Positions 116 through 15,700 of a stretch of 15,701 bases of DNA are shown here, piece by piece. The stretch spans positions 1 to 15,701 of the forward strand of contig NZ_JBMFOX010000026.1 of assembly GCF_049969415.1 (NCBI RefSeq). The letters run 5' to 3'. The notes below the pieces were generated by a model that saw only the letters and a list, made by a program, of their open reading frames with translations, ran no database searches and was not told where the DNA came from. How positions within the stretch are numbered: the first letter of the stretch is position 1; each line of letters starts with the position of its first letter. The position numbers were made by a program, and so were the translations under genes. This DNA comes from Candidatus Hadarchaeum sp. (GTDB taxonomy: Archaea; Hadarchaeota; Hadarchaeia; Hadarchaeales; Hadarchaeaceae).

Positions 116-880
116 ATGAAGAAAATGAAAGTGATTGACCTTACTCAACCCTGGGGAATGAATACACCGCCGTGGCCGGGAGGAAAGGCACCGACGATAA
201 GGTATGTGAACATGATCTCCACCGACGGCTACAGCCAGCAAGAGATTACCTTCACCACCCACATCGGAACCCACCTCGACGGTCCGCTCCACTTTGATCC
301 CAAGGGCCGGGATCTGGCCAGCCTGCCAATGGACAAGCTGGTGGGCGAGGGTGTTGTGGTGGATGTCAGCGAGGTTGGTCCCTACGGAATTTACACACCG
401 AAACACATAACGAGCAAGGTTGACGTTAAGAAGGGCGACATCCTGATTATCCACACCGGCTTCCACAAATACTACGCCAACGCCGAGGAGCCCGACGAGA
501 TCACCTATTTTTACAAGCACCCGGGCCCGCACCGGGAGTTCCGGGACTGGGTGGCGGAGATGAAGTTCAAGTGGATCGGGGTCGACTGCGGTTCTGCCGA
601 TCACCCGATGAACACGGGACTTCAGAAGCTCAACCCGATTGTCGCCAAGGAAGCGGAGAAGAAGCTAGGGAAGCCCTTAAGCGAGATTTTCCCGCCTGAA
701 ATGGACCACATGATGCACCACACTTTGTTCAAGCAACCCTATGAAATCATCCATGTGGAGAACATCGGCGGGGATATTGACAAGGTACTGAATAAGCGGA
801 TGATAATCGGATGCTTCCCGCTCAAGACGATCGGCGGTGAGTCCACACCCTGCAGGGTTGTGGCCTTCCTCTTCGAGTGA
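116..880 (+). CDS. Cyclase family metal-dependent hydrolase (kynurenine formamidase/isatin hydrolase-like)
   Basis: HxGTHxDxPxH signature (THIGTHLDGPLHF), VIDLT N-terminus, GDILIIHTG, IGVD, ENI and C-terminal GGESTPCRVVA. Start moved from 47 to ATG116 (ATG125 also possible) because 47-115 is AT-rich promoter sequence. Confidence 0.9.
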   Translation: MKKMKVIDLTQPWGMNTPPWPGGKAPTIRYVNMISTDGYSQQEITFTTHIGTHLDGPLHFDPKGRDLASLPMDKLVGEGVVVDVSEVGPYGIYTPKHITSKVDVKKGDILIIHTGFHKYYANAEEPDEITYFYKHPGPHREFRDWVAEMKFKWIGVDCGSADHPMNTGLQKLNPIVAKEAEKKLGKPLSEIFPPEMDHMMHHTLFKQPYEIIHVENIGGDIDKVLNKRMIIGCFPLKTIGGESTPCRVVAFLFE

Positions 881-887
881 GGAACAG

Positions 888-928
888 AAAAAAGAGGTGG
901 CAGCGCGGAGCTGCCACTTTTATTTTTT
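888..928. terminator. Bidirectional hairpin terminator between the convergent cyclase and Rid genes
   Basis: Perfect 8-bp stem GTGGCAGC (897-904) / GCTGCCAC (910-917) with a 5-nt loop. It is flanked by A6 on the left and TTTTATTTTTT on the right, so each strand has a U-tract. Confidence 0.75.
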
Positions 929-1307
929 AGCGCAGCACGGCGATGCCGTCAATCTCGACCAAGAGTTCCTCCATGATGAGGCTCTTGACCGCAATCAGGG
1001 TACTGGCAGGAGGGTCTTTCTTGAAGTACTCCGACCTTATCTTTCGGAACTTGGCCAAGTTTTTGATATCGGTTAGATAGACCCTTATCTGCACTAGGTC
1101 GTCTAGGGTTCCACCTTCAGCGGCCAAGATGGCGCGTAGATTCTCGAAAACCTGTCGCACCTGTTTTTCAAAGTCACCCTTGCCCACGATTTCTCCCTTG
1201 GCATTCTCGGCTATTTGTCCCGAGATAAAGAGAAGGTTGCCCGCCCTGACCGCGGGTGAATATCCCGTGGGCTTGGGCAAACCTTCCGGGACCACTATCT
1301 TCTTCAC
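927..1307 (-). CDS. Rid (YjgF/YER057c/UK114) family protein lacking the catalytic Arg (Rid4-7 type)
   Basis: Motifs GYSPAVRAGNLLFISGQ, QVFENL..IL..G..LDD.V...VYL.D, PASTL.V..L and VEID.IA. Probable GTG start at 1307 after the purine-rich GAAGGGGAT; ATG1331 is the alternative. Confidence 0.88.
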   Translation of the reverse strand: MKKIVVPEGLPKPTGYSPAVRAGNLLFISGQIAENAKGEIVGKGDFEKQVRQVFENLRAILAAEGGTLDDLVQIRVYLTDIKNLAKFRKIRSEYFKKDPPASTLIAVKSLIMEELLVEIDGIAVLR

Positions 1308-1351
1308 TAACGATCCCCTTCCCGAAGGCATGTCTTTCTGTTTTTATAGGC

Positions 1352-2830
1352 TTACTCGCGCACCCACTTCAGTTCCCAGACTTCCGGCTTCTTCAGCCAA
1401 GGTGCAGTCGGGATAATTTTCTCGCCGAACTTCTGGACCTTGTCGATTACCTTTTCCTCGTCGACGGTCTTAACCACGCCCTTTTCCATGATTATCTTTC
1501 CGTTGACCATCACGGTGTCGCAGGAGTCACCCTTGCCGTTGTAGACGAAGCTGTTGATAACGTTCTCCTTGGTCACGGGCACCCAGTAAATTTTTCTGAG
1601 GTTCCACATGACGATGTCGGCTGCTTTTCCAACCTCAAGCGATCCGATTTCCTTGTCCCATTTCAGCGCCTTGGCACCGTTCACCGTCGCCATCTCTAGG
1701 GCCTTGGGGCTGGGATCGGCGGTTTTCAGCATGAACAGGTCGGGGTCCGGGAATATCATCGGGTGCCAGGCTTCCGCGTGTCCGACTGATACTGTCCAGA
1801 TGTCCCGGACTAGGTCGTGTGCGGTCCCGGTGCTTGACTCGTCGTTGCCGAGCGCCACATTTATCCCCATCTTGACCATTATGGGGAACTTTCCTCGCAT
1901 CGAGACGGCGGAGTAAACGCCGTGCATGCTAGATCCCGGGACGTGGACGACGTTGGAGTTAGTCTCCTTCAGCATCAGCAGTTCGCCGCCGTCAACCCAG
2001 GCCATGTGAGCAGCCATGAAATCCGGCCCGAGAACCCCTTGGTCGTAAAGATATTCGATGTCCCTGCGCCCGAATCTCTTGCGGGTCATCTCAACCATGT
2101 CGTGGGAAACCCCGGCGTGAGTAAGTATGCCTGAATCATACTTGTTCGCCAGTTCTCTCGTCGCTTTACAAAGCTCAGGTGACACATTACACACTTGCTG
2201 GAGATCCATCCAAGCCTTGATTCGGCCATCGGCGGCGCCATGGTATTTCTTTATGAACTCCTCACTGCGCCGGATGCACTGGTCGGTGGTTTCTCTCAAC
2301 CTGCTGCATAGTTCGGTGAAGGCGTCGTAGGAGGCGTAGGATGATTTGGTTGCCTCGTGGATGTCCATCAGGTCCCTGCCCAGCACCGCGCGAACGCCGA
2401 CATCGGTCACGGCCTTGGCAGCCGACTCCTCCATGGTCTGAATGGTGCCACAGTCGCAGAAGGTCGTGGTTCCGGTCTTGAGCCCCTCGATTAGGTTCTT
2501 AACCGCCGCGTAGTAGTAGTTCTCCTTGGTCAGATTCATATAGGTCCAGGAGAAATATCGTTCGCACCAAGGCACTACCGGAACGTCGTCTAGCATGCTC
2601 TTGTCGTAGGCAGATTCCAAATGGATGTGTCCGTTGATCAGGCCTGGCGTCACAAGGTAATTCTTGGCATCGATTACTCGGTCCGCCCTATATTTTCTTT
2701 TCAGCGCCGCCGTGTCACCGATGTCGATGATTTTTCCATCGTCAACGGCAATGGCGGCATTCTCAAGAAGTCTTCTCTTCGAGTCCATGGTAAGGACAAA
2801 TCTCGCATTTGCGATAAGGGTATCCACCAT
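1352..2830 (-). CDS. Amidohydrolase, MtaD/SsnA/AtzA-like (nucleoside deaminase/chlorohydrolase group), substrate unknown
   Basis: PGLINGHIH (HxH), GTTT, THAGV, AAHMAW, ALGND, ALEMATVNGAKAL and GSLEVGKAADIV. The true start is ATG2830 or ATG2839, not 3124, because the extension crosses the promoter region and the opposite gene. Confidence 0.9.
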   Translation of the reverse strand: MVDTLIANARFVLTMDSKRRLLENAAIAVDDGKIIDIGDTAALKRKYRADRVIDAKNYLVTPGLINGHIHLESAYDKSMLDDVPVVPWCERYFSWTYMNLTKENYYYAAVKNLIEGLKTGTTTFCDCGTIQTMEESAAKAVTDVGVRAVLGRDLMDIHEATKSSYASYDAFTELCSRLRETTDQCIRRSEEFIKKYHGAADGRIKAWMDLQQVCNVSPELCKATRELANKYDSGILTHAGVSHDMVEMTRKRFGRRDIEYLYDQGVLGPDFMAAHMAWVDGGELLMLKETNSNVVHVPGSSMHGVYSAVSMRGKFPIMVKMGINVALGNDESSTGTAHDLVRDIWTVSVGHAEAWHPMIFPDPDLFMLKTADPSPKALEMATVNGAKALKWDKEIGSLEVGKAADIVMWNLRKIYWVPVTKENVINSFVYNGKGDSCDTVMVNGKIIMEKGVVKTVDEEKVIDKVQKFGEKIIPTAPWLKKPEVWELKWVRE

Positions 2831-2839
2831 GTGTCTCAT

Positions 2840-2963
2840 TATGCTTAAGAGGCGGCGGTTAAAAAGATTTTTGGTAATAACTTTGTTATTCTTTCCGAAA
2901 AGCGGCGACAAAATTAATTTTTGTTCAACATTTTGTCTTATATTTGAATAAAAACAACAATTT
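2840..2963. promoter_or_regulatory. Divergent AT-rich promoter region with palindromic candidate operator sites
   Basis: Minus-strand AAAATCTTTTTAA (BRE/TATA, about 2859-2871) lies about 20-30 bp from the amidohydrolase start. Plus-strand TTATATTT (2938-2945) lies about 22 bp before ATG2967. Palindromes occur at 2876-2890 and 2907-2937. Confidence 0.6.
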
Positions 2964-2966
2964 GTG

Positions 2967-3683
2967 ATGTTAAATAAAACTAAAATCCGAAATTTGGCCC
3001 GGAAGTTTGGCGCGGATCTGGTCGGTTTTGGACCCGCCGATGCGATGGATGAAGCCCCCGCAGGACATCGGGCGAGGGACTTTCTCCCTAATGCCGGAAC
3101 CGTGATTTCGCTGGCGGCGCGCATAAATTATTCTGTCGTTGAGGGTCTTCCACAGACGAGGTGCGAATATATCAGCGCCAATGACAGTTCCCGCTCCTTG
3201 CTCAACGGTGCCATCTGTAGGATCGCGAGATACCTTGAGGAAGAGGGTTATTCGGCAATACCTTTTCTCCAAGGAACGGATTACAAAGTGCTGGCGGGGG
3301 ACCTCTCCTTGAAACATGCGGCGGTTGCGGCCGGTCTGGGCGAGTTCGGCCTCAATAACCTTCTGCTGACGCCCCAGTTCGGGCCTAGAGTGCTCTTGGG
3401 CGCGGTAGTTACAGATGCCTTGATTCCCGCGGACCCACCGTTAAAGAAACAGCTTTGTGATCTCTGTGGGGCCTGCCTAAAAGCCTGCCCCGTCGGTGCG
3501 ATATGGGAATCCGAGGAATACGACAGGAAGAAGGGATGGACTATAGACAAGCACAAGTGCTTTCATTATCTGCGCGAAGTTTTGGAACCGGACTACGGCC
3601 ATTACAGTTGCGGACTGTGCATCAAGGCCTGTCACGTTGGAAAGGCGAAAGTTGTTAGGGGCAGGCAGCTGAGGTTAAAGTGA
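2967..3683 (+). CDS. Epoxyqueuosine reductase (QueG)/reductive dehalogenase-like cobalamin and 2x[4Fe-4S] protein
   Basis: ARKFGADLVGF, SLKHAAVAAGLGEFGLNNLLLTPQFGPRVLLGAVVTD, CxxCxxCxxxCP (CDLCGACLKACP), then KC and CxxCxxxC (CGLCIKAC). No Tat signal. Start is GTG2964 or ATG2967. Confidence 0.82.
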   Translation: MLNKTKIRNLARKFGADLVGFGPADAMDEAPAGHRARDFLPNAGTVISLAARINYSVVEGLPQTRCEYISANDSSRSLLNGAICRIARYLEEEGYSAIPFLQGTDYKVLAGDLSLKHAAVAAGLGEFGLNNLLLTPQFGPRVLLGAVVTDALIPADPPLKKQLCDLCGACLKACPVGAIWESEEYDRKKGWTIDKHKCFHYLREVLEPDYGHYSCGLCIKACHVGKAKVVRGRQLRLK

Positions 3684-3699: not shown

Positions 3700-4584
3700 A
3701 TGATCGTAGATGTGCACGTTCATTTGGGTGAACTAGGCAAGCACTTTCAGAAGTGGTGGATGGACGAGCTTTACCGCGGTTTTCCAAACGTTCCGGATAA
3801 GAACGTGAGATACAGGGAGGATCCGATTGCGGGGCTGATTGAGGATTTGGACTCTGCCGGAGTCGATGTCGCCTGCGTCATGGCCAGCGACCACCGGAGG
3901 CCCTATCCTTACGGCACGGGTTCGAGCTATACTCCAAATGATTACGTGGCTGAGTGCGTTCGCAGGCACCCGGATCGGTTCGTCGGCGTGTGCAACGTTG
4001 ACCCGCTGAGGGACCCGCATGAGGCTAGGAGGGAGATGGAGAAGTGCGTCCGGGATTGGGACATGCGTGCCCTGAAGCTTTACCCAACCTACGACCACTT
4101 TGACCCCCGGGATGAGCGGGTCTTTCCCATCTATGAAAAGGTCATCGAGCTCGAGATACCGGTCCATTTCCATATGGGCTACACCGGCACCGTCAATGCC
4201 CCAATGAAGTACCAGTTTCCCCACCTGCTTGATGAGGTGGGAATAAGGTTCCCGGAGATGAAGGTGATCGTCGCCCACATGGGGTTCCCCTGGGTTGACG
4301 AGTGCCTCTGCCTGCTGATGAAGCACCGCCACTGGTACGCCGATATCGCCTACTGGGGAGCCTTCCCGCCGACGTTTTTGATCGAGATGATGAAAAAGTT
4401 TGATTACATGTGCGGCTATCACCGGCTCCTCTACGGTTCGGAGAATCCTTGGAAGGCGACCTTTACGAAGACGTTCATGGGCCTGAACCGGATAGCCGAG
4501 GAAGAGGGGATTAAGTTCAGGATAAGTGATGAGGATTTAAAGAAGATCCTGGGGGAAAATGCAAGGAAGCTCTACCGGATTTAG
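3700..4584 (+). CDS. Amidohydrolase_2 family TIM-barrel metalloprotein (hydrolase, hydratase or decarboxylase)
   Basis: IVDVHVH, NDYVAE..RHPDRFVG, LKLYP, PVHFHMG, FPEMKVIVAHMGFPW, YADIA and LLYGSE. Starts 16 bp after the QueG-like gene with a GGAG RBS. Confidence 0.88.
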   Translation: MIVDVHVHLGELGKHFQKWWMDELYRGFPNVPDKNVRYREDPIAGLIEDLDSAGVDVACVMASDHRRPYPYGTGSSYTPNDYVAECVRRHPDRFVGVCNVDPLRDPHEARREMEKCVRDWDMRALKLYPTYDHFDPRDERVFPIYEKVIELEIPVHFHMGYTGTVNAPMKYQFPHLLDEVGIRFPEMKVIVAHMGFPWVDECLCLLMKHRHWYADIAYWGAFPPTFLIEMMKKFDYMCGYHRLLYGSENPWKATFTKTFMGLNRIAEEEGIKFRISDEDLKKILGENARKLYRI

Positions 4585-4598
4585 CTGGGTTGCCAATA

Positions 4599-5942
4599 TT
4601 ATTTTTTCTTCGGCTGGTACTGCTTTCTTCTCTCCAGTACCTCAGGGGTAATCCTCGTCGCTAGGTCGATGATCTTCTGCTCATCGACGTTTTTCAGGAC
4701 GCGGTTTTCCATCACGATCTTGCCATCGACAAAGACTGTTTCCACGTCGTCACCGTGGCAGGCGTAGACAAGATGAGAAACCGCATTGAAAAATTCACCA
4801 AAAAGGACAGGGGTTGTGCGCAGCTTGTTCAGGTCTACGAGGATCAGGTCCGCCTTTTTGCCCACTTCCAAGGAGCCGATTTCCCTCTCCCAGCCCAGCG
4901 ACTGTGCGCCCTTGATGGTGGCCATCTCCAGCACCTGATAGGCCGGAAGCACGGTGGCATCCAGCTTGGTTACCTTTTGCAGCAGCGAGGCGAACTTCAT
5001 AACCTCGAACATATCAGCAGTGTTGTTTTCCTTTAGGCCGTCTGTCCCCAAGCTTACGTTCGCCCCGTACTTCATCAACTCCGGCACCGGGCAGACCCCG
5101 TCGGCAAGCTTCTGGTTGCTCACGGCACAGTGAGCGACGTTGGTTCTGGTTTGGCCCAGCAACTGTCTTTCTTTTTCAGTTAACCAGCAGGCGTGGGCGA
5201 TCAGCGTGTTTTTACCCAGCAGGCCGAAGTCAGCGAAGGCCTCGATTGGGTGCTTTCCGAACCTCTTCATCGCCAGTTCCCACTCATCCTTTACCTCGTT
5301 GGAGTGAATGTGGATGCCCGTGTGGTATTTCTTTGCTCCTTCAACAACTTTGTGGATGTGGTCGTCCGAGCTGTAAAAGGCCCACTCCATACCGAACCAG
5401 ACCCGCACCCGGCCTTGAGCATATCCATTTCTGGATCGGACCAGTTTTTCGTTATCTTCAAAAGATTCGTATTTTTGGGTAGGTGAATCGGCAGCCATGG
5501 GTGCCAGAACAGCACGGAGGCCGATTTCCCTCACAGCGTCGGCACAGCGATGCATATATCGAAACATGTCGGCCACGCAAGTCGTCCCTGACTTCAGGGC
5601 CTCCGCGTAGGTCAGCATGGCGGCGGCATGGGCTATGTCGGGAGTCACGACCCAGTGCCAAGGTGCGATGTAATAGTCCAGCCACTCTATCAGCGGCAGG
5701 TCGTCCGCGGTGCCCCGGATCAGATCCGAGTGAATGTGGGTGTTTATCAGGCCGGGGATGACGGCCTTCTTCTTAGCGTCAATTACTCGGTCCACCTTGT
5801 ATCGCTTCTTCACCACGTCATGCGTCTTTCCTAAATCAATTATTCTGTCGTCCTTGATGACCACGGCGCCGTCTTCAAAAATTCTCCGGCGTTTGTCTAC
5901 GGTTATTACAATTCCGTTTTTTATCAGCGTTGTTTCGGACAA
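4599..5942 (-). CDS. Amidohydrolase, MTA/SAH deaminase (MtaD)-like group, substrate unknown
   Basis: PGLINTHIH, LIRG.ADDLPL.EWL, SGTT, IHSNE (HxxE), IAHACW, VAHCAVSNQKLADG, LGTDG..NN and GSLEVGKKADLI. Start is TTG5942 (after GGGTTGAT) or TTG5966. Confidence 0.9.
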   Translation of the reverse strand: MSETTLIKNGIVITVDKRRRIFEDGAVVIKDDRIIDLGKTHDVVKKRYKVDRVIDAKKKAVIPGLINTHIHSDLIRGTADDLPLIEWLDYYIAPWHWVVTPDIAHAAAMLTYAEALKSGTTCVADMFRYMHRCADAVREIGLRAVLAPMAADSPTQKYESFEDNEKLVRSRNGYAQGRVRVWFGMEWAFYSSDDHIHKVVEGAKKYHTGIHIHSNEVKDEWELAMKRFGKHPIEAFADFGLLGKNTLIAHACWLTEKERQLLGQTRTNVAHCAVSNQKLADGVCPVPELMKYGANVSLGTDGLKENNTADMFEVMKFASLLQKVTKLDATVLPAYQVLEMATIKGAQSLGWEREIGSLEVGKKADLILVDLNKLRTTPVLFGEFFNAVSHLVYACHGDDVETVFVDGKIVMENRVLKNVDEQKIIDLATRITPEVLERRKQYQPKKK

Positions 5943-5969
5943 GCCATCAACCCGCGAAATTTTCAACCA

Positions 5970-6083
5970 TCAATCTAATTTCTGCTCTTTTATCATTTCT
6001 CCTAGGATTAGAGTTTTAAACGTGGCGCGAGAGGGCTCATAAAAGTTTAATAGCTTTTGGTGTCCATCTTTACAAAGAGGTGG
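5970..6083. promoter_or_regulatory. Divergent promoter region between the amidohydrolase and enamidase genes
   Basis: Plus strand has AAAAGTTTAATA (6041-6052, BRE/TATA) followed by a GAGGTG RBS at 6077-6082. Minus strand has TTTAAAA at 6014-6020. Confidence 0.55.
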
Positions 6084-7330
6084 ATGCTATTAGCGAAATT
6101 TTGGCAATTGAGAATATAGGCAAGTTAGTTTCTGGAGACATAGACCAACCCATCTTGGAAGCCGACACGGTTTTGATTAAAGATGGGAAAATAGCGGAAA
6201 TTGGCTGGAAGGGAGAGGTCGACGTAGAGGCGGCCAAGACGCGCATCGACGCCATGGGCGAGGTGGTGACGCCGGGCTTCATCGACCCGCATACGCATAT
6301 GGTCATCGGCGACTGGACTCCCATCCAGAAGGCGATCGGCTGGATGGAGGGCGCCCTTTTGGCGGGTGTGACGACGATGATTTCGCAGGGTGAAAACAAT
6401 ATCGGCGGGCTGCCGATGGACCCAGCGGGCAACAAGGCTTTGGCAATCTTGGCCGCGAAGACCTACAAGAAGTACCGCCCCGGTGGTGCGCTGAAGGTTC
6501 ACGGCGGCGCGCTGATGCTGGTTGAAGGCCTGACTGAACGGGACTTTAAAGAGATGGCCGAGGCAGGAGTCTGGTTAATCGCCGAGATAGGCGGCTGTGG
6601 ACTCTACAAGCCCAAAGATGTGGTGCCGATGGTAACTTGGGCGAGGAAATACGGCTTCAAGGTCTCGGCCCATCTGGGCCCAGTCTCAATCCCGCTTTCC
6701 GCACCCCTGATGGCGGATGAGATTATTGAGATCAATCCAGATTTGGCCGTGCATGTGAACGGAGGATCGACTTCAGTCCCCTTCACCGAGGTGAAAAAGC
6801 TCGTTGACGATGCCGACTTCCACTTAGAGGCGGTTTTCAACGGAAACCCCAAGGCGGCCGTGGAAATGGTGGATTACATGAGAAAGAAGGATGCGCTGAG
6901 CAGACTTGTCATAGGTTCCGACACACCCACGGGCAACGGCATGATCCCTGTGGCAATCCTGAGGATGGTGGTGCAGATAGCTTCTCTGAACCAGTTGCCG
7001 GCCGCCGAGGTCATCGCCGCGGCCACGGGAAACACCGCCGACACCTTTGGACTGAATGTGGGCAAAATCGAGGTCGGCCGGGAAGCAGATATAATCATCC
7101 TGGATCGGCCGGCCGGTTCTCAGGGTCGCGACGCTCTGGAGGCGATAGAGATAGGCGATATCCCTGGGACGACATTGATCATGGTCGACGGCCAGATAGT
7201 TGCCCTCAGAGGCCGGGACACCAGGCAAACGGCGGGTTGCGTTAAGATAAATGGTGTGGAAAGGAGAATAACCACGATGGAGGATTATCTCTGGGGACCG
7301 TGGAAGTTCGCCGTCGACCGGTTGATCTAA
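6080..7330 (+). CDS. ena: Enamidase-like binuclear amidohydrolase
   Basis: End-to-end resemblance to Eubacterium barkeri enamidase as recalled: NIGKLVSGDI, PGFIDPHTH..GDWTP.Q, GVTTMIS.G, KALAI, KVHGGA..L..GLTE.DF.EM...GVW...E.G, MV.WA.K.G, H.G..SIP, H.NGG.T, GNPK, G.D.P.G.G.IP, ATGN and GDIPG. All six metal-ligand positions appear present. The start codon is uncertain (GTG6080, ATT6089 or TTG6101). Confidence 0.85.
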   Translation: MDAISEILAIENIGKLVSGDIDQPILEADTVLIKDGKIAEIGWKGEVDVEAAKTRIDAMGEVVTPGFIDPHTHMVIGDWTPIQKAIGWMEGALLAGVTTMISQGENNIGGLPMDPAGNKALAILAAKTYKKYRPGGALKVHGGALMLVEGLTERDFKEMAEAGVWLIAEIGGCGLYKPKDVVPMVTWARKYGFKVSAHLGPVSIPLSAPLMADEIIEINPDLAVHVNGGSTSVPFTEVKKLVDDADFHLEAVFNGNPKAAVEMVDYMRKKDALSRLVIGSDTPTGNGMIPVAILRMVVQIASLNQLPAAEVIAAATGNTADTFGLNVGKIEVGREADIIILDRPAGSQGRDALEAIEIGDIPGTTLIMVDGQIVALRGRDTRQTAGCVKINGVERRITTMEDYLWGPWKFAVDRLI

Positions 7331-7343: not shown

Positions 7344-7385
7344 GCGCAAGCTATAAATTAAATGGGGCTTCAGAAAAGTTGTGAT
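7344..7385 (+). promoter_or_regulatory. Candidate internal promoter and RBS for the Mo/W oxidoreductase
   Basis: GCGCAAGCTATAAAT with the TATA box at 7352-7358, and GTGAT at 7381-7385 before ATG7389. Confidence 0.5.
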
Positions 7386-7388
7386 GGA

Positions 7389-9535: not shown

Positions 9536-10036
9536 ATGGCAAAATACAAACTACAGGCCGATGTTAAAAAATGCATCGGTTGCCACTCTTGTGAGATTGC
9601 CTGTAAGCAGGAGTTTAATCTTCCCGTGGGGCCGATGCCCATTCGTGTTGTTAAAATTGGTCCTAGGAAGACCAACGGCGGACTGAGGACGGACTATGTT
9701 CCAATTTTTTGCAAACACTGTGAGGATGCCCCTTGCATCAAGGCCTGTCCCGAGCACGCGCTGTACAAGAGGCCTGACGGAATCGTGATGGTGGATAAGG
9801 AGAAATGCATCGGCTGCCAGCTGTGCATCGATGTCTGCCCAATAAACGCGCCTCAGTTTAATCCCGAGCTTGGGAAGATTGAACTTTGCAATCTCTGTGC
9901 CCACAGAATTGATAAAGGTGAGAAGCCGCTCTGTGTTCTGGTCTGCCCGGCCAGATGTCTTTACTTCGGCGAAACAACGGAGATTAACAAGAAGATGCAG
10001 GAGATAAAAGTAAAGGACATCCTTAACTCAAGATAA
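9536..10036 (+). CDS. 4x[4Fe-4S] electron-transfer subunit (DmsB/NrfC/PsrB-like)
   Basis: Sixteen Cys in four groups: CIGCHSCEIAC, CKHCEDAPCIKACP, CIGCQLCIDVCP and CNLC...CVLVCP. Starts 2 bp after the catalytic subunit with a GGAGGAG RBS. Confidence 0.92.
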   Translation: MAKYKLQADVKKCIGCHSCEIACKQEFNLPVGPMPIRVVKIGPRKTNGGLRTDYVPIFCKHCEDAPCIKACPEHALYKRPDGIVMVDKEKCIGCQLCIDVCPINAPQFNPELGKIELCNLCAHRIDKGEKPLCVLVCPARCLYFGETTEINKKMQEIKVKDILNSR

Positions 10037-10050: not shown

Positions 10051-10611
10051 TCATTCCAACAAAAGCAACACGAAGCACTTGTAGTTTTCACCATCTTTGA
10101 CAACGTTGATATTAAACCCCGCCTTTCGTGCTGTCTGGTAGACATCGATTCCAACGGCTTCCATGGACGGCCTGGCCTTCCGCGGATACTTGCAGTCCGC
10201 CTTGCTTAGCATTCTGCGGTCCTCCGCTTTCTCCGCCACGCAGGGATTACAGTACCTGCAGGGCCCAGCAACGAGAATCAGTGCCCGATAGTAACCGCTC
10301 AGGAAAGCCTCACGCTCTAACTCTATGCCTTTTTCGTGAACTTGGTGCAAGTCCTCCTTGTCTTTTAGATTAATGAACTCAATAAGCAAAGCCCGGCGGT
10401 AGCTTTTCAACCACTTTCTGGTTTCCTCAGGTGTAGGCGTGTAAGGCGGGCAGGTAAGTCGGAGCCCGTACATTCCGCAGCCGTACTGACATTTTATTCG
10501 CACGTAGTCCTCGACAAAGACATCGTCGGTTGAGATAATTTTAGCGGAGTTGGCTCCAACTTTCCTTGCCTTTTCGATTAACACCTGTAATCGGTCTTGA
10601 ATGTCTGCCAT
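10051..10611 (-). CDS. DUF2284-type predicted metal-binding (Cys-rich) protein
   Basis: VR.KCQYGC..YG...TCPP..P, LEREAFLSGYY.A, GPC..C..C and C..P..ARPSMEA.GIDV..T match the family pattern as recalled. Confidence 0.82.
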   Translation of the reverse strand: MADIQDRLQVLIEKARKVGANSAKIISTDDVFVEDYVRIKCQYGCGMYGLRLTCPPYTPTPEETRKWLKSYRRALLIEFINLKDKEDLHQVHEKGIELEREAFLSGYYRALILVAGPCRYCNPCVAEKAEDRRMLSKADCKYPRKARPSMEAVGIDVYQTARKAGFNINVVKDGENYKCFVLLLLE

Positions 10612-10660: not shown

Positions 10661-12034
10661 TTATCCCGAGGAATGGGGCGTTTTCTGCCGAGGACAGAGT
10701 TTTCCGAAACCTTCTTGGCTCCAAGCGCTTCCGTCTTTCGACACTATTTTTCCCCGAACCATGGTCAGCTTGGGAACCCCTTTGACCATAAATCCTTCAA
10801 ACGGAGTCCAGTCGGCTCTTTGGTGCAATTTCTCCGCCTTTATCACCATCTCATCTTTTAGGTCTATTATCGTCAGATCGGCGTCAGACCCTGGTCGGAG
10901 AGTTCCCTTAGCCGGGTAAAGGCCGAATACCCTCGCTGGTTGGGTGGAGATCACCTCAACCAACCTTCCCAATGGTATTTTTCTCCGGTGATAGCCCTCG
11001 CTGATCGTCAGCATTACTCTGGTTTCAACACCCGGGACTCCTGCCTCGACTTCCCAGATGTTATTCCAGCCACTTTCCTTCTCAACCTGCAGCGGTGCGT
11101 AGTGGTCTGTGACCAGAATGTCCAGAACACCATCGGCCAGCGCCTTCCAGAGCGCTTCAGAATCGGCCTTGGTCCGCAGCGGCGGGTTGACCTGAAGATA
11201 AGGGCCGAATTTCTTCAGATCTTCTTGATTGAAAAGAAGATAGTGCGGGCAGGTTTCCCCGGATACCGACAGTCCCGCTTTTTTAGCTTCCCTGATTAAC
11301 CCCGCCCCGCGTTCGGAGGATATATGGAATACGTGAAGCGGTGCACCGGTTGTTGAGGCCAAAAGTATGGCTCGGGATATGGCCTCGACCTCGGCGATGG
11401 TGGGCCGGGATAGCGCGTGGGCAGTTGGGTCACTTCTTCCCAGTTTCTTGAGTTCCCTTAATCTGTGGAGTATGATGCTTTCATTCTCGGCGTGAACCGT
11501 GGCCAAGGATTGAGCTTCTCTAATTTTTCTGAAGGAATCTAGCATGACGCCGGTTTCCAGCGGGGACAGTCCGTCTGGGTTGGCCATGAAGTGTTTGAAG
11601 GACACCGCACCCATTTTTGCAACTTGGGGAATTTCCTCGATGTGCTCTTCCAAACAAACCGCGGCGTGAAGGGCAAAGTCGGCCGCGCACATTTTTTCAC
11701 CTGCAGACTTCATCAGGGTGAACGTTTTGACGAGGCTTTCTTTGCCGGGTATCGCAAAATCTATAACCGTCGTCGTTCCTCCAATGGCGGCCGCTTTGGT
11801 GCCGTTGGCAAAGTCCTCCCGGTGCAGGTAACCGGGCACGTGTAGATGGACATGAGCGTCTATGGCGCCAGGAATTATTATGTTGCCACTGGCGTCGATT
11901 TTTTCATCAGCTGCCGGAAGGTTGGGCTCCTTAGCTATCGAAACGATCTTGCCGGCTTCGATGGCTAGGCCTGCTTCAAGGAAAAAACCGCGGCTGAAGA
12001 TTTTTCCGTTAGTGACGACGGTCTCGGCCTTCAT
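10661..12034 (-). CDS. Cyclic amidohydrolase (dihydropyrimidinase/hydantoinase/allantoinase-like)
   Basis: PGAIDAHVH, GTKAAAIGGTTTVIDF, SFK (carboxylated Lys position), VHAEN, FHISS, ETCPHYL, NPPLR, TDH, G.PGVET and GSDADL. ATGA overlap with the stop of the upstream ureohydrolase. Confidence 0.9.
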   Translation of the reverse strand: MKAETVVTNGKIFSRGFFLEAGLAIEAGKIVSIAKEPNLPAADEKIDASGNIIIPGAIDAHVHLHVPGYLHREDFANGTKAAAIGGTTTVIDFAIPGKESLVKTFTLMKSAGEKMCAADFALHAAVCLEEHIEEIPQVAKMGAVSFKHFMANPDGLSPLETGVMLDSFRKIREAQSLATVHAENESIILHRLRELKKLGRSDPTAHALSRPTIAEVEAISRAILLASTTGAPLHVFHISSERGAGLIREAKKAGLSVSGETCPHYLLFNQEDLKKFGPYLQVNPPLRTKADSEALWKALADGVLDILVTDHYAPLQVEKESGWNNIWEVEAGVPGVETRVMLTISEGYHRRKIPLGRLVEVISTQPARVFGLYPAKGTLRPGSDADLTIIDLKDEMVIKAEKLHQRADWTPFEGFMVKGVPKLTMVRGKIVSKDGSAWSQEGFGKLCPRQKTPHSSG

Positions 12035-13041
12035 CGAGGCAACCTCTTAGACGACGCCACTCCCGCGAGCAGATAGAGTATGGTCCAAGTCGTGATCCAG
12101 TAAAGCGGCCACGCTGGCAATTGGTAGGGTTGCCAAGCCGGGGTCGGAATCCATTCCACGTTGAAGGCCGTCACCATGTTTTTACCCACACGGTAAGCGA
12201 TCTTGAGCAGTTCGGACGTGGTTATTCCGAGCGGTTCGTCCAGCCCCGGAGCGGCCCCGAGATCTAAGACATCTAAATCTAGGTTAAGGAAGAGGTGGTC
12301 CGTATCGGTCTTCGCTTTTGTTATGGCCTCTTCAGCAATTTCTTCGATCCCCCTTCTCTCAATTTCGGCAGAGGTATACACAGTCGCTCCTTTCTGCCGA
12401 TACCATTTCATCTGTTCCTTGAAGTTCCTCGGACCCCTCATTCCGATTTGGACGAAATTTTTCATGTTCATTCCTGCAATCTCGGATACCCGAGTCACCC
12501 AGCAGGCGAGAGACCACCTGTCGCCTTCATGAACTTCCATGTTGTCGGCGTGCGCGTCCAGATGAATGATGCCCAGCTTCCCGCCCATTCCGCAGATGGA
12601 TTTCGCGACGAGGTAAGGGTGCGCCCCGATGGTCAGCGGTATACATCTAGCTTCTAAAATTTCGGAAATTTTCTTCGCCGCAAGTTTAAAGTAATCACTT
12701 ATTTTTTCTTGACATGAGGGATAAAATCCGGTCACGTCGCCGCAGTCGACAAGATTTATTCGGTCGAGTACATCGATATCGAGTTCGGGCAGGTAGCCTC
12801 CGTATTTTATCGATGCTTTTCTCAGCCGCACGGTGTCCAGCATGTTTATGCCGACTTCTCTCCCGACCAACATTTCGGCGCCTTGAGACGGCAGGCCCAA
12901 AAAGGCGGCGTCAGTCCCCTTCAGCTCACCTTTTTCCTTCACCGCAGGCGCACCGAGGAAGGTGGGGACATCACCGTAAATGGTCGGGATGAGAATCTTT
13001 TGAAATTTTTCCATGGATTTCCTGTACTTGGTTTTGCTCAC
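12031..13041 (-). CDS. Divergent ureohydrolase (arginase/agmatinase family)
   Basis: PTFLG.P, D.AFLGLP, LRKAS, VDCGDV, IIHLDAHAD, VQIGMRG, LDLDVLD..APG and NVE. Start is GTG13041; ATG13014 is the alternative. Confidence 0.85.
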   Translation of the reverse strand: MSKTKYRKSMEKFQKILIPTIYGDVPTFLGAPAVKEKGELKGTDAAFLGLPSQGAEMLVGREVGINMLDTVRLRKASIKYGGYLPELDIDVLDRINLVDCGDVTGFYPSCQEKISDYFKLAAKKISEILEARCIPLTIGAHPYLVAKSICGMGGKLGIIHLDAHADNMEVHEGDRWSLACWVTRVSEIAGMNMKNFVQIGMRGPRNFKEQMKWYRQKGATVYTSAEIERRGIEEIAEEAITKAKTDTDHLFLNLDLDVLDLGAAPGLDEPLGITTSELLKIAYRVGKNMVTAFNVEWIPTPAWQPYQLPAWPLYWITTWTILYLLAGVASSKRLPR

Positions 13042-13044
13042 AGG

Positions 13045-13140: not shown

Positions 13141-13145
13141 GTTAT

Positions 13146-13445
13146 ATGCGCCAGATAGAGGTGTCGGTGGTTTACCTTTCCTTTTTCCAGGAGATCACTA
13201 AAACGAGAGAGGAGAAACTGAAGGTTCAGGAGGGGGCAACGTTGAGGGACCTTCTGGAACTTCTGTGCGCCAAACACGGCGAAAGCTTCAGGAAGGCCCT
13301 TTTTGACCCAAAGACCGGCGCCGTCTACGGTCACAACCACATAACCCTGAACGGGCGACTGGCTCATCTCGTGGATAAAAACTTCAGAGTTAACTTAGGT
13401 GAGGGAGATCGGGTGGCTCTCGCCCACGCGGTTTCGGGGGGCTAG
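13146..13445 (+). CDS. moaD: MoaD/ThiS/SAMP ubiquitin-like sulfur carrier
   Basis: About 99 aa with a beta-grasp pattern (V.Y..F.E......E......GATL.DLL..L, I.LNGR, L.EGD.VAL) ending in VSGG-stop. Strong RBS before ATG13146. Adjacent to the AOR gene. Confidence 0.88.
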   Translation: MRQIEVSVVYLSFFQEITKTREEKLKVQEGATLRDLLELLCAKHGESFRKALFDPKTGAVYGHNHITLNGRLAHLVDKNFRVNLGEGDRVALAHAVSGG

Positions 13446-13452
13446 TTTCAGC

Positions 13453-15378
13453 TCAATATGGAAGTTTGCCCAGCTTTTCCAGCTCATCGGCCACGTAATC
13501 TAAGCCTAGTTCTGCCAGTTTCTTCCTCGGGATAAGTCCTGTTCTCTGGTCCCATCCTCTTAAATAGTAGTATTCCTCCAGCATCTTGTCCAGTTCCACA
13601 ACGTGTCCTTTGTTTACCCCTTCGGGTGCCGGTGTTTTTGTAAATCTGTCGGGCAGGGTGTCGTCCTTTTTGTTCAGCCCCTCCCGGATATTGAAGGCCC
13701 TTTGGAGGTTAACTATCCTCTCGCCGGCTCTTCTCAAATCGTTCCCGGTTACCTTCATGCCCGTGGCCAGCCGCAAAATCTTGGCCATGTCCTCGAAATA
13801 GATCTGTCCGGTGTAAAGCGGCAGGCAGGTGCCGGAACTTTTGCAAAGCGATAGGCTGTCGCAGAGGACGCAGAGTTCTTCGCCATCCTTTACCTCGTAG
13901 GCCTTGTACTTGGGGCTCAGCGGTTGTGCCATCTCGGGAAGATATTCTTCACCGAACCGCGCTTTGATTGGCTCCTCCCTGCCGACCTCGTCCAATAACG
14001 GGAAGGCCTTGAGGTGGTCGGCACCGCGGCTGGCGACCGCTTGGGCCAGCCCCATGGATTTCTGGGCCCTGCCGTCTTGGGCCGGGATTTCCATTTTTTT
14101 CACAGTCATCAGATATTTTTCCGAACCCCGACCGATTAATTGCGCCGCCCGATAGCTGCCTTCAGCCAATATGGCGCCAAACCCTTCCCTCCGGGCAATT
14201 TTAGGAATCAAGTTTAACAACGCCTCGTGGTTGCCCCAGTTCAGCTCAATGCCATCCGTGTCCTGCTTGGTCAGTATGCCCTTCTCGTAGCATTCCATGG
14301 ACCAGGAGATGGTTCCTCCGGTAGAGATAGTGTCTAGGCCCAGCTCATCGCAGAGTTCGTTAGCATAGATAATCGCGTCCAAGTTTTTAATCCACAGTCG
14401 GGCTCCCAACGCCGAAAGGGTCTCGTACTCGGGCTGTTTAGCATAGGTTCCGGCGTAGGGTTGATTTTTAACTCGGACTGGCTTTTCGCAGGTGGCCCAG
14501 CAACCGAAGCCCCCTCGGTCCTTTATCCGGTACTCACTTCTGATCCTTTCTCCGCCTATTTCTTTGGCGAAGGGAAAGACTCCGGTTTGAAAATTCTTTA
14601 CGGGCCACCGAGCGATTTCGTTCATCAGCTCCACGAGAATCGGGGTGCCAAACTTAATCCGGTCAAGGATGTAAAAGTCCTTTTTATAAACTTCGATTAT
14701 CTTTTCCATGAATTCATAAAACGCGCCGGGGTTTTCGGTTTTTACGTCGTTCGTGCCCTTCACCGCCACCGCCTTCAAGTTCTTGGATCCCATCACTGCG
14801 CCTAGGCCGCAACGAGCCGCGGCCCTCCTCTGGCTGATGATTGAGGCATATCTGACCAGATTTTCGCCCGCAGGCCCGCAGCTGGCGACTTGAATTCTGT
14901 GTTCACCGAGGTCCTTTCTAATCATCTCCTCGGTTTCACCAGTGGTTTTGCCCCAGAGGTCGCTAGCGTCCATAATCTTGACGCTGCTGTTGTTAATCCA
15001 AAGATATACTGGCTTGCTGGCCCTGCCTTCAAAGACGATGGCGTCATAACCGGCGAACTTTAATTCCGGGCCCCAGTGTCCGCAGCAGCTGGAATCGCCG
15101 TAGATTCCGGTGAGCGGGGATTTGGCACCGACCTCAAATCTGCAGCTGACCGGCCAGCCGGTGCCGCAGAGAGGACCCACGGCGAAGATAAGCCGGTTTT
15201 TTGGAGACAGTGGGGCAGTCTCCGGGCCGACTTCATCCCACAAAATTTTGGTGATGAAACCCGCGCCACCAAGAAAGTCTTCGGCCAGCTTGGCGTCCAA
15301 AGGCTGTTTGGTGACCACGCCTTCGGTCAGATTTACCCGAATAATCTTCCCGGCATAGGCTTGATATTTAAAGTCCAT
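13453..15378 (-). CDS. aor: Tungsten aldehyde:ferredoxin oxidoreductase (AOR/WOR) family catalytic subunit
   Basis: GKIIRVNL, AKSPLTG, ELKFAGYDAIV.EG, GPAGENLVRYA, R.GLGAVMGSKNLKA, PEYET, DELGLDTIS, IARREG.G..LAEG, DSL.LC, R.FN.REG....DD.LP.RF and YY..RGWD. Confidence 0.95.
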   Translation of the reverse strand: MDFKYQAYAGKIIRVNLTEGVVTKQPLDAKLAEDFLGGAGFITKILWDEVGPETAPLSPKNRLIFAVGPLCGTGWPVSCRFEVGAKSPLTGIYGDSSCCGHWGPELKFAGYDAIVFEGRASKPVYLWINNSSVKIMDASDLWGKTTGETEEMIRKDLGEHRIQVASCGPAGENLVRYASIISQRRAAARCGLGAVMGSKNLKAVAVKGTNDVKTENPGAFYEFMEKIIEVYKKDFYILDRIKFGTPILVELMNEIARWPVKNFQTGVFPFAKEIGGERIRSEYRIKDRGGFGCWATCEKPVRVKNQPYAGTYAKQPEYETLSALGARLWIKNLDAIIYANELCDELGLDTISTGGTISWSMECYEKGILTKQDTDGIELNWGNHEALLNLIPKIARREGFGAILAEGSYRAAQLIGRGSEKYLMTVKKMEIPAQDGRAQKSMGLAQAVASRGADHLKAFPLLDEVGREEPIKARFGEEYLPEMAQPLSPKYKAYEVKDGEELCVLCDSLSLCKSSGTCLPLYTGQIYFEDMAKILRLATGMKVTGNDLRRAGERIVNLQRAFNIREGLNKKDDTLPDRFTKTPAPEGVNKGHVVELDKMLEEYYYLRGWDQRTGLIPRKKLAELGLDYVADELEKLGKLPY

Positions 15379-15700
15379 TTATTTCCTCCATTATCTCCTT
15401 CAATCTTTTCGAGTGTTTCATCCCAATTTCATAGGCGATTTCGTTAGGATCGGCTAATTTCAGTTTTCCCGTAGGGCAGTGTCTCACGCAGTTACCACAT
15501 TGATCGCATTTTATCGCCGTCCTCTTTTCCGGGTGCAGCCAGATGGCGCCGAAGGGACACTCTTGAACGCAGACACCACAGCCGATACATTTTTGATAAT
15601 TGACCGCCCACACCCAGCCCTTTCTCTCGATAGCCTCCACGGGGCAGCTTTGGGCGCAGGGCGCGTTTTCACATTGCCGGCAGACTATCGGACCGTCATA
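15368..15700 (-). CDS. Multi-[4Fe-4S] ferredoxin-like subunit associated with AOR (5' end truncated by the window edge)
   Basis: The frame stays open to the window end: YDGPIVCRQCENAPCAQSCPVEAI...CIGCGVCVQECPFGAI...KCDQC..CVRHCP. Its stop overlaps the AOR start by 11 bp and its 3' end carries the AOR RBS GGAGG. Confidence 0.9.
   Translation of the reverse strand, partial: YDGPIVCRQCENAPCAQSCPVEAIERKGWVWAVNYQKCIGCGVCVQECPFGAIWLHPEKRTAIKCDQCGNCVRHCPTGKLKLADPNEIAYEIGMKHSKRLKEIMEEINGL

Follow-up and report, generated by a model that had tools for sequence, protein, structure and literature searches.

A candidate island for anaerobic breakdown of nucleobase-type N-heterocycles, with a tungsten-type aldehyde oxidoreductase, in the archaeon Candidatus Hadarchaeum

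Gene content of the window

We examined all 15,701 bases of contig NZ_JBMFOX010000026.1 (C26, called the window) and the cluster of amidohydrolase and redox genes on it. The contig belongs to the metagenome-assembled genome (MAG) of Candidatus Hadarchaeum sp. GCF_049969415.1 (G000; 1.47 Mb, 138 contigs), a hot-spring archaeon. The window holds 15 genes (g01 to g15) in about eight transcription units on both strands, and judged by gene families and gene order it probably forms the middle of a composite island, about 21 kb long, for the anaerobic catabolism of nucleobase-type N-heterocycles. A preliminary description, made from the letters of the window, had proposed an N-heterocycle catabolic island in a probable archaeon. 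The archaeal origin was confirmed, since the nearest loci for the molybdenum subunit g08 are in Candidatus Hadarchaeum MAGs (94-96% amino-acid identity) and archaeal rRNA genes are present in G000. As to the island, the hydrolytic and reductive gene neighbourhood stood and was extended by the flanks, whereas the left half of the window was genus-specific and scores stayed below the equivalog cut-offs.

Genes were called from the open reading frame listing together with Pfam and NCBIfam profile scans, and structural relatives are PDB sequence matches. C-numbers denote G000 contigs and L-numbers denote loci in G000 or other genomes. The genes of the window are as follows.

g01, 47..880, plus strand: cyclase-family metal hydrolase, kynurenine-formamidase-like (PF04199, 120 bits)
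g02, 927..1331, minus strand: Rid/YjgF enamine/imine deaminase, downstream of g03 (PF01042, 111 bits)
g03, 1352..3124, minus strand: divergent MtaD/AtzA/8-oxoguanine-deaminase-type amidohydrolase (PF01979, 162 bits)
g04, 2964 or about 3156..3683 (start uncertain), plus strand: short protein like reductive dehalogenase (RDH) and QueG, with two [4Fe-4S] motifs
g05, 3700..4584, plus strand: Amidohydro_2 protein, 16 nt after g04 (PF04909, 119 bits)
g06, 4599..5966, minus strand: MtaD/DadD/SsnA-type amidohydrolase (PF01979, 244 bits)
g07, 6080..7330, plus strand: 416-aa enamidase-like amidohydrolase, first gene of the g07-g08-g09 operon
g08, 7362..9533, plus strand: cytoplasmic Mo/W-bis-pyranopterin guanine dinucleotide (bis-PGD) catalytic subunit of the acetylene-hydratase-like branch (PF04879, PF00384, PF01568)
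g09, 9536..10036, plus strand: DmsB-type four-cluster Fe-S subunit, 2 nt after g08 (PF13247, 92 bits)
g10, 10051..10611, minus strand: DUF2284 predicted metal-binding protein, last of the g12-g11-g10 unit (PF10050, 153 bits)
g11, 10661..12034, minus strand: hydantoinase/dihydropyrimidinase-like cyclic amidohydrolase (HyuA/PydB-like)
g12, 12031..13041, minus strand: divergent arginase-family ureohydrolase (PF00491, 121 bits against a cut-off of 22)
g13, 13146..13445, plus strand: MoaD/ThiS-family small protein (PF02597, 34.9 bits against a cut-off of 22.5)
g14, 13453..15378, minus strand: tungsten-type aldehyde oxidoreductase (AOR) sensu stricto (PF02730, 269 bits; PF01314, 433 bits)
g15, 15368..15700, minus strand: AorA/YdhY-type polyferredoxin with multiple Fer4 families, cut by the contig end

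Eight of the 15 genes (g01, g02, g03, g05, g06, g07, g11 and g12) belong to C-N-cleaving or imine-handling families by Pfam and NCBIfam, in agreement with the earlier count of eight in about 15. The other seven comprise three Fe-S/pterin redox systems, the MoaD/ThiS-like g13 and the DUF2284 protein g10; the redox systems and MoaD had been recognised before, and g10 was absent from that list. Across the 1.47-Mb genome, tblastn found 15 Amidohydro_1-type loci (8 MtaD/SsnA-like, 5 hydantoinase/dihydroorotase (DHOase)-like, 2 enamidase-like), and four of them lie in the 15.7-kb window where 0.16 would be expected (about 25 times the density, Poisson P about 2e-5). This clustering is more than chance. 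An Rfam scan of the window at gathering thresholds gave no RNA family.

No housekeeping gene was found among the 15, as had been stated before. A coincidental clustering of housekeeping or salvage genes (MtaD, PyrC, SpeB and a general AOR) is the least probable explanation of the window, and only a very slight one. It can draw on g11, which passes the broad pyrC_multi domain cut-off (298 against 279 bits), and on g06, whose best models are MtaD/DadD-type, but better candidates for such functions are encoded on C25, C18, C10 and C13. C25 carries an MtaD-type deaminase beside the S-adenosylhomocysteine hydrolase gene (620 bits against a cut-off of 609), of which g06 is a paralogue with 43% identity; C18 carries a DHOase-like gene beside an ornithine transcarbamylase (OTCase)-family gene, C10 has PyrD with PyrK, and C13 has an arginase-family gene. 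That housekeeping MtaD and PyrD, and PyrC and arginase-family candidates, lie elsewhere in G000 supports the reading of the window as a catabolic island. The housekeeping explanation also fails to account for synteny conserved across phyla, and the absence of the island from most Hadarchaeota does not fit essential genes.

The island beyond the contig ends

In a relative with a 107-kb contig (L006), the window genes stand in the same order. On their left are a MobA-like gene and then an AllG-like gene abutting the cyclase gene g01, which AllG directly precedes in the relatives (in L006 the end of AllG is at 3480 and the start of g01 at 3477 or 3489). On their right follow a full polyferredoxin gene, a 337-aa PreA/PydA-like protein with a DHO_dh domain and two [4Fe-4S] clusters, a 497-aa Amidohydro_1 protein (SsnA-like) and a Bmp/PnrA-type ABC binding protein, all co-directional with the AOR gene and tightly spaced. 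The same flanking genes are found at the ends of G000 contigs C23 and C34, with AllG at the C23 end, so that the island in G000 can be assembled as C23 (reverse complement)-C26-C34, about 21 kb. Its minus-strand unit then reads Bmp, SsnA-like amidohydrolase, PreA-like protein, polyferredoxin and AOR.

The AOR g14 matches Pyrococcus furiosus AOR (1AOR, 498 bits), 8C0Z (365 bits) and BamB (285 bits); it is called tungsten-type by family, W and Mo being indistinguishable from sequence. The polyferredoxin gene g15 overlaps the AOR start by 11 nt, and its N-terminal 53 aa are encoded at C34:3-161. Full-length orthologues have 158 aa, and 16 Cys in four CxxCxxC...C groups are invariant in 10 orthologues, which fits four [4Fe-4S] clusters. 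The small protein g13 ends in Gly-Gly (...VSGG) and adjoins the AOR in all seven archaeal loci; an open reading frame at 13107-13367 on the opposite strand was considered as a MoaD and discarded, as it gave no family.

In the PreA-like protein, eight Cys are invariant across eight orthologues, which is consistent with two clusters, and these cluster ligands are its only invariant Cys. It scored 171 bits with the PreA model NF006183 (cut-off 335). The flanking SsnA-like protein reached 292.5 bits with the SsnA model (NF005540 / TIGR03314; cut-off 444; g03, 171.2 bits), and the only NCBIfam hit of the Bmp protein was 'putative B6 ABC transporter' (130 bits, cut-off 400).

The preliminary description had reported no flavin enzyme, with other families standing in for enzymes of the xanthine dehydrogenase (XDH) family, and had advised looking for xdh and transporter genes in the flanks. 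The first statement holds for the window, but a PydA/UacX-like FMN/Fe-S protein lies directly beyond the contig end, in the AOR operon. No FAD-subunit family was found in that operon, the third gene being the PreA-like FMN/Fe-S one. A Bmp transporter was found in the flanks, and no XDH-family gene in the window or its flanks; XDH genes do adjoin the core in a more distant locus described below (L179). The replacement of XDH-family enzymes is weakened as a proposal by the four XDH large subunits in G000 and by the two, with an FAD subunit, beside the L179 core.

Only AllG adjoins the island, and AllF-like and AllH-like genes are on other G000 contigs (C29 and C6). In a more distant Hadarchaeota genome, G003, the AllF, AllG and AllH genes are clustered (L090, G003:C1:21794-27635) and adjoin an OTCase-like gene, a cyclase-family remnant and arginine-biosynthesis genes.

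A 13-mer, TGCAACAATGCAC, occurs at window positions 48-60 and at about 85-97 of G000:C23, where it is part of a GTGCA...TGCAC palindrome; it is inverted once C23 is turned. The shared 13-mer may explain the assembly break, or may be an operator. As a repeated operator it was rejected, with a single occurrence in the window and at least one match in 56 of 200 shuffles.

Conservation in other genomes

Conservation scans were anchored in turn on g08, on g14, on the flanking SsnA-like protein and then on an SsnA-like alignment (A1), the last because the single SsnA-like query returned 8 close loci only. With g08 as the anchor, 79 loci were obtained. Four, each from Hadarchaeota, hold between 11 and 15 of the window's 15 genes; the remaining 75 share nothing more than the Fe-S subunit, a polyferredoxin-like hit and, once, an AOR. 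That single locus among the 75 non-Hadarchaeota ones (L019, Bathyarchaeia) has a g08 relative (47%) with the Fe-S subunit, and an AOR (44%) and a polyferredoxin are encoded no more than 10 kb away.

The right half and its flank are kept in six Hadarchaeota genomes and, with rearranged order, in one Bathyarchaeia genome. Their conserved core comprises the SsnA-like protein, the PreA-like protein, polyferredoxin, AOR and MoaD-like protein together with g11 and g12. In the more distant Hadarchaeota locus L179, another amidohydrolase gene, two XDH large subunits and an FAD subunit are directly upstream of the core; in another, L183, the core is inverted relative to g07-g09. In the Bathyarchaeia genome, Hecatella orcuttiae (L180), order and orientation differ, and the identities are 57% for the PreA-like protein, 70% for the SsnA-like protein, 52% for g11 (opposite strand), 46% for g12, 58% for polyferredoxin, 70% for AOR and 42% for the MoaD-like protein. 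This locus also has Bmp, two permeases, an ABC ATPase, an Amidohydro_1 protein and a cytidine deaminase (CDA)-fold deaminase.

With the AOR as the anchor, 71 loci came up, and the AOR was usable in 62. One of the two with an SsnA-like neighbour is an Atribacterota contig that carries AOR, HpcH aldolase, SsnA-like protein, Bmp, ATPase, two permeases and Amidohydro_1, and so has the Bmp transporter too. The alignment A1 returned 28 loci, of which 20 were new; an AOR was present in 11 of these, and an AOR with a PreA-like protein in 10. Eight of the ten come from Spirochaetota, as operons that run SsnA-like, Bmp, ATPase, permease, permease, second amidohydrolase, AOR, polyferredoxin, PreA-like, and a ninth locus of this order (L188) ends before the PreA-like gene. 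The remaining A1 loci with AOR are one from Hadesarchaea and one from Bathyarchaeia. Seven of the nine new loci lacking AOR are contigs that end too early; Lacrimispora and an actinomycete have no AOR within 9 kb of the SsnA-like gene. An HpcH/HpaI aldolase gene directly precedes the SsnA-like gene in all three annotated bacterial loci. Neither g11 nor g12 is in the bacterial operons, and MoaD is also missing from the Spirochaetota version. Recurring co-localisation, whose failure the preliminary description had named as evidence against its proposal, was thus seen in six Hadarchaeota and one Bathyarchaeia genome, and in the Spirochaetota operon.

One Bathyarchaeia locus, L187:13370-16343, has a second AOR and a luciferase-like PF00296 gene beside the SsnA-like, PreA-like and AOR genes. 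The PF00296 family has been proposed as an F420-dependent reductase variant in Chloroflexota clusters in the main text of PMC12507026.

A FastTree phylogeny of 79 AORs, without four duplicate-record rows (L178, L182, L183, L184), spread the PreA-linked AORs over three or more separate positions (a clade of archaea, one of Spirochaetota, and the paralogues from G000), and a 42-member clade, almost all Chloroflexota, has no PreA-linked AOR; the supports are local Shimodaira-Hasegawa-like ones only, long branches are unreliable, and the sampling is biased by the way the loci were found. Among 66 Hadarchaeota species genomes, G000 included, orthologues were found of g12 in 7 and of the SsnA-like protein in 8, and a g07-like gene in 9 (in two of these only a 46-47% relative).

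These patterns also bear on whether the locus is a mosaic of independent small operons with different substrates (g07-g09, g04-g05, g03-g02, AllG-g01, g12-g11-g10 and AOR), in which only the AOR/PreA-like/SsnA-like set would be a functional module. We regard this as unlikely, though it deserves weight. The eight transcription units on both strands suit it, as does the recurrence of the left half (g01-g06 entirely, g07-g09 largely) inside Hadarchaeum only; in one species g07 and the core are on separate contigs, L006 has no g05, and g08 relatives elsewhere keep the Fe-S subunit only. Identity to relatives, moreover, is 90-97% in the left half (g04 73-80%, g05 87%) against 64-88% in the right half. 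Yet three species at 78-86% DNA identity share one order of all 14-15 genes, four Amidohydro_1 genes in 15.7 kb are far above the genome density, and the family of each unit is one that acts on N-heterocycles or amidines. Recombination between the halves was looked for and rejected, since the blastn pieces change only gradually, from 86% to 78%. Within the catabolic island, the left half (g07-g09, g04-g05, g03-g02 and AllG-g01) is probably a genus-specific accessory set that widens the substrate range.

Left-half genes

The protein g07 matches the Eubacterium barkeri enamidase 2VUN over nearly its full length (360 bits, E 2e-106, residues 9-388), which bears out the earlier label 'enamidase-like'. 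It has a paralogue on C72. In five of the seven other species of the genus its best match is 84-96% identical; the remaining two have only a 46-47% relative, like the C72 copy. Enamidase converts a cyclic enamide into an aldehyde acid and ammonia, and an aldehyde product of this type would be a substrate for an AOR. In contrast to nicotinate fermentation, g07 is co-transcribed with a Mo/W-bis-PGD enzyme and not with an XDH-family nicotinate dehydrogenase. The E. barkeri cluster holds enamidase, nicotinate dehydrogenase, 6-hydroxynicotinate reductase and glutarate-branch enzymes; against this pathway list, the Pfam and NCBIfam scans showed no other nicotinate-fermentation gene among the other 14 window genes.

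The co-transcribed g08 has acetylene hydratase 2E7Z as its best PDB match (358 bits, residues 14-716). Like the Pelobacter acetylenicus enzyme it is cytoplasmic with an N-terminal [4Fe-4S] domain; its Fe-S motif starts at residue 18, and there is no twin-arginine leader. Unlike that enzyme, it has a dedicated four-cluster partner, g09 (TIGR02951, 141 bits against a cut-off of 214), which stays beside g08 relatives in many other phyla, and a His follows its second cluster Cys, at the position of the hydratase Asp13 that we take to be essential. Acetylene hydratase presumably acts alone, and the dedicated Fe-S partner points to a redox reaction for g08.

Turnover or salvage of a cofactor ring (flavin, pterin, vitamin B6 or nicotinate), with g07 and the Mo/W enzyme acting on a pyridine or pterin ring, is very unlikely in our judgement. 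The 360-bit enamidase match and the B6-transporter hit of the Bmp protein would suit it, and Bmp-family proteins also carry riboflavin in spirochaetes. That B6 hit is far below its cut-off (130 against 400), though, the window showed none of the other nicotinate-fermentation genes, and the genes for the SsnA-like, hydantoinase-like and PreA-like proteins speak for diazine rings. A riboflavin-degradation preprint (10.64898/2026.02.13.705874) was set aside as a related system, as it concerns other genes.

The other left-half genes gave low scores. The best PDB match of g01 was kynurenine formamidase 4CO9 at only 45 bits. For g02, TIGR00004 gave 96 bits (cut-off 106) and RutC 77 bits (cut-off 169). 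The best NCBIfam score of g03 was 271 bits (cut-off 522) and its best PDB match 127 bits; its true start is probably near 2830-2890, since relatives align only from residue 80-83. For g04, described before as a QueG-like B12/Fe-S protein, the two [4Fe-4S] motifs and the RDH/QueG likeness stood (TIGR02486 RDH, 61 bits against 160; QueG, 54 against 200; PDB matches of 41-50 bits to the C-terminal core of PceA, NpRdhA and QueG). B12 binding is unsupported, as the protein of 175-239 aa is a part-length relative and covers part of the RDH/QueG core only. The family of g05 comprises metal-dependent decarboxylases, hydratases and lactonases; it had no NCBIfam match, and its PDB matches were at most 36 bits (4-oxalomesaconate hydratase, LigW). 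By its family g06 is a probable deaminase, with 390 bits for PRK06038 (cut-off 609) and 236.5 bits for the SsnA model (cut-off 444).

Right-half hydrolases

The cyclic amidohydrolase g11 scored 371 bits with TIGR02033 (cut-off 393.25), and its PDB matches rank hydantoinases (291-250 bits; top L-hydantoinase 1GKR, 291) above allantoinase (241) and DHOase (195). The stop of g12 overlaps the start of g11 by 4 nt, and the two genes are adjacent in L179 and L180 too. The DUF2284 gene g10 follows g11 in L006, L007, L009 and L183; L179 and Hecatella L180 gave no match to it.

The ureohydrolase g12 falls well short of the cut-offs for agmatinase, arginase and formimidoylglutamase (agmatinase TIGR01230, 76.5 bits against 174.3). 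The motifs GAH, DAHAD and DLDVLD are visible in its sequence, and we take them to be the metal-ligand motifs of ureohydrolases. With the Ni-dependent guanidine hydrolase (7ESR/7OI1) and metformin hydrolase (8SNF) it shares DAHxD and DxDxxD; it differs in that the similarity is low (7ESR 91 bits, metformin hydrolase 85 bits) and the gene is translationally coupled to the hydantoinase-like g11. A TAG flagged inside g12 orthologues proved, in L007, the orthologue checked, to be a stop upstream of the start and not in frame.

From these two genes one might propose a guanidino, hydantoin or amino-acid-derived catabolism, in which g11 would open a cyclic guanidine or hydantoin (creatinine-like), g12 would release urea or guanidine and the AOR would serve amino-acid fermentation. 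The nearest relatives of g12, the L-hydantoinase at the top of the g11 list, the closeness of g14 to the broad-range P. furiosus AOR, and the absence of g11 and g12 from the bacterial operons, which could mean a separate function, all go with this proposal. It is nevertheless improbable, since rearrangement has not parted g11 and g12 from the SsnA-like, PreA-like and AOR genes in any of the seven archaeal genomes, the transporter belongs to the nucleoside type Bmp/PnrA, XDH adjoins the L179 core, and g12 scores low (91 bits).

Paralogous loci in the genome

In total, G000 encodes six AORs, seven proteins of the dihydroorotate/dihydropyrimidine dehydrogenase (DHOD/DPD) family, 15 Amidohydro_1-type proteins and four XDH-family large subunits, counts that point to nucleic-acid-derived rings as a major substrate. 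Five of the six AORs adjoin a PreA/DHO_dh-like, cyclic amidohydrolase or Amidohydro_2 gene or a Bmp transporter, as follows.

AOR on C26/C34: island polyferredoxin, PreA-like, SsnA-like and Bmp genes
AOR on C49: DHO_dh-like, polyferredoxin and XdhC genes
AOR on C8: OTCase-like, hydantoinase-like and PreA-like genes
AOR on C36: MoaD-like, polyferredoxin and Amidohydro_2-like genes
AOR on C40: inside a Bmp/permease locus

The C40 paralogue (C40:2266-7916, 35% to g14) is flanked by a Bmp-type binding protein on one side and two BPD_transp_2-type permeases on the other. A cluster on C2 (67000-73200; L093:8048-14129) has MobA-like, XdhC, DUF5698/DUF2179, 362-aa PreA-like, near-SsnA and DHOase/hydantoinase-like genes, and its near-SsnA protein, with 410.9 bits against the cut-off of 444, is the closest to SsnA among the copies scored. 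About 45 kb from this cluster, on the same contig, are an XDH large-, medium- and small-subunit (LMS) set and an atypical OTCase-like gene. The OTCase-like genes on C2 and C8 scored 153-161 bits with the YgeW model (cut-off 453). A PreA on C3 passes its cut-off (454 against 335 bits).

On C35 (C35:1-7200, L096), a 418-aa PreA-like gene stands between an octopine-dehydrogenase-like gene and genes for a corrinoid protein, an MttB-family methyltransferase and an FrhB-like protein, an arrangement that hints at a link between methylated-amine and ring metabolism.

Comparison with known systems

Among the closest parallels is the reductive urate (2,8-dioxopurine) cluster of anaerobic bacteria. The reductive urate route was published in 2025 (PMC12507026); according to the main texts of that paper and of bioRxiv 10.1101/2025.04.24.650524, the Escherichia coli cluster has XdhD-YgfM, YgfK, SsnA, HyuA, YgeW, YqeA, YgeY and YgeX, and the Clostridioides difficile variant has UacX and UacY. 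UacX is described there as a PydA homologue (PF01180) that lacks the FAD domain, is presumably fed by ferredoxin and occurs with SsnA and HyuA (PMC12507026). The island likewise has a PF01180 FMN/Fe-S protein with no FAD/NAD(P)H domain next to an SsnA-like amidohydrolase, a likeness to UacX by description, and it shares a putative hydantoinase-type second ring opener, the presumed reduce-then-hydrolyse design and the XDH-family genes, which are in G000 and next to the core in L179. It differs in being archaeal, in lying below the SsnA, HyuA and PreA cut-offs, in a reductase without the catalytic Cys, and in having a ureohydrolase, a Bmp ABC transporter and a tungsten-type AOR that comes with polyferredoxin and MoaD. 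No XdhD-type XDH-family dehydroxylase is in the window or flanks, the four large subunits being elsewhere in G000.

In the reductive Pyd pathway, PydAc of Clostridium chromiireducens is a ferredoxin-dependent dihydropyrimidine dehydrogenase, as described in the text of PMC7332683. The island protein resembles PydAc in combining FMN with Fe-S clusters and lacking the NAD(P)H/FAD half, and its electrons presumably come from low-potential Fe-S carriers; it too is accompanied by a dihydropyrimidinase-type hydrolase. It departs from the Pyd pathway in its PreA score (171 against 335 bits), the missing catalytic Cys, the lack of a beta-ureidopropionase among the genes seen in the island, and a presumed electron wire that is a dedicated polyferredoxin encoded between reductase and AOR.

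For the AOR, the reference is AorABC(DE) of Aromatoleum aromaticum, a tungsten AOR (PDB 8C0Z; PMC12096430) in which AorA is the polyferredoxin. The island has a comparable AOR catalytic subunit with both domains, an adjacent four-cluster polyferredoxin and a MoaD-like protein, but no AorC; a Cys-less DHOD/DPD-family FMN/Fe-S protein takes its place in the operon. The text covered of the AOR review (PMC12096430) describes third modules of the FAD and HydABC types only, and purine, pyrimidin-, dihydroorotate and amidohydrolase are absent from it. Unlike the oxamate carbamoyltransferase AllFGH, the three All subunits are not together in G000 and lie on three different contigs. Judged by its gene families, the island would work like the reductive urate and Pyd pathways and the AorAB module, and by the tests applied it is a member of none of them.

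Proposed pathway

All steps below are proposed from family membership and conserved gene order. A PnrA/Bmp-type ABC system would import a nucleoside or base. The deaminase-type amidohydrolases g06 and g03 may remove exocyclic nitrogen, with Rid g02 quenching the enamine or imine; the PydA/UacX-like FMN/2x[4Fe-4S] protein beyond the window would reduce a ring C=C; the SsnA-like amidohydrolase and g11 would open the ring or rings, and the ureohydrolase g12 would split off a urea- or guanidine-type fragment. The AOR g14, polyferredoxin g15 and the PreA-like flavoprotein could form an AorAB-like module in which the PreA-like protein replaces AorC, so that oxidation of an aldehyde by the AOR would pay for ring reduction. 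The aldehyde would possibly come from the enamidase-like g07, or from the HpcH aldolase in the bacterial versions. If the island is catabolic in this sense, a purine-type substrate is a tentative choice that falls somewhat short of an even bet, favoured by XDH beside the L179 core, the SsnA/HyuA-like hydrolases, and AllG and a CDA-fold deaminase nearby.

Several findings weigh against the proposed pathway. On the side of conservation, amidohydrolases were found in none of the 75 non-Hadarchaeota loci anchored on the molybdenum enzyme, the left half is genus-specific, a PreA-like neighbour was present in 0 and an SsnA-like one in 2 of the 62 AOR-anchored loci, and the island is confined to one genus apart from single genomes of two more. 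By NCBIfam score, every island enzyme stays below the curated equivalog cut-offs. The island lacks YgeW/UacY, YgeY and YgeX (for M20 peptidase and diaminopropionate ammonia-lyase the search did not extend to the whole genome). In the PreA-like protein, 'ISNPS' aligns with 'ISCPN' of Lactococcus lactis DHODB, in a shorter loop; the Cys of 'ISCPN' is presumably the catalytic residue of the DHOD/DPD family, and lacking it the PreA-like protein may not reduce a pyrimidine-type ring at all. The more canonical C2 cluster and the true PreA on C3 mean that the island copies may serve other substrates. The window itself lacks a regulator and is divided into about eight transcription units of both orientations, and in the wider neighbourhood there is a mevalonate-pathway thiolase/DUF35 pair and, in a relative, a PALP gene that is CysK/M-type.

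A more specific proposal, possible but doubtful, is that AOR, polyferredoxin and the Cys-less PreA-like protein form an unrecognised tungsten-flavin complex for N-heterocycle breakdown in several archaeal phyla and Spirochaetota. In one version, oxidation of a pathway aldehyde would be coupled to ring reduction in a closed loop without NAD(P)H or free ferredoxin. In a bolder version, the tungsten centre itself would hydroxylate or dehydroxylate the purine ring, reactions so far known to us for XDH-family molybdenum enzymes only.

To our knowledge, anaerobic purine and pyrimidine breakdown has been worked out in bacteria only, and the island suggests that thermophilic subsurface archaea run a related nucleobase route from different parts. 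Tungsten AORs are usually treated as generic aldehyde scavengers; the island gives them a specific, testable partner. If the complex exists as proposed, part of the 'aldehyde oxidoreductase' annotations in subsurface archaea would be nucleobase-catabolic machinery. In the texts covered, accounts of Hadarchaeota stress sugars, amino acids, CO and H2, and one notes nucleoside uptake (PMC10681998, PMC10811742). The four-subunit XDH-family set could merit re-examination where it has been read as CO dehydrogenase.

The earlier word 'undescribed' has to be narrowed: the reduce-then-hydrolyse logic is known (PMC12507026 and the Pyd pathway), and the tungsten AOR link is what was not found described. 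The main texts of PMC12507026 and bioRxiv 10.1101/2025.04.24.650524 name no tungsten, AOR-family enzymes or archaea. The literature search, made on main texts and abstracts, found neither a tungsten AOR described with a DHOD/DPD-family protein and nucleobase-type amidohydrolases nor such a pathway in archaea; the supplementary sequence-similarity-network neighbourhood data of PMC12507026 for Spirochaetota SsnA, outside that search, could show an AOR neighbour.

Other features of the genome

Four archaeal small-subunit (SSU) rRNA matches were found in G000, on contigs C19, C41, C62 and C69 (L001-L004). One is complete (1505 bits, with tRNA and large-subunit rRNA downstream), two are partial and one is full-length at only 432 bits, which suggests several rRNA loci, mixed strains or a contig of a second archaeon. 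A search of sequencing runs listed two hot-spring DNA runs, both of small share (0.05-0.06), and no RNA run. A eukaryote-type topoisomerase IB is encoded at G000:C2:64344-65942 (L093:5344-6942, minus strand), with Pfam matches to Topoisom_I (230 bits), Topoisom_I_N (198 bits) and Topo_C_assoc (65 bits).

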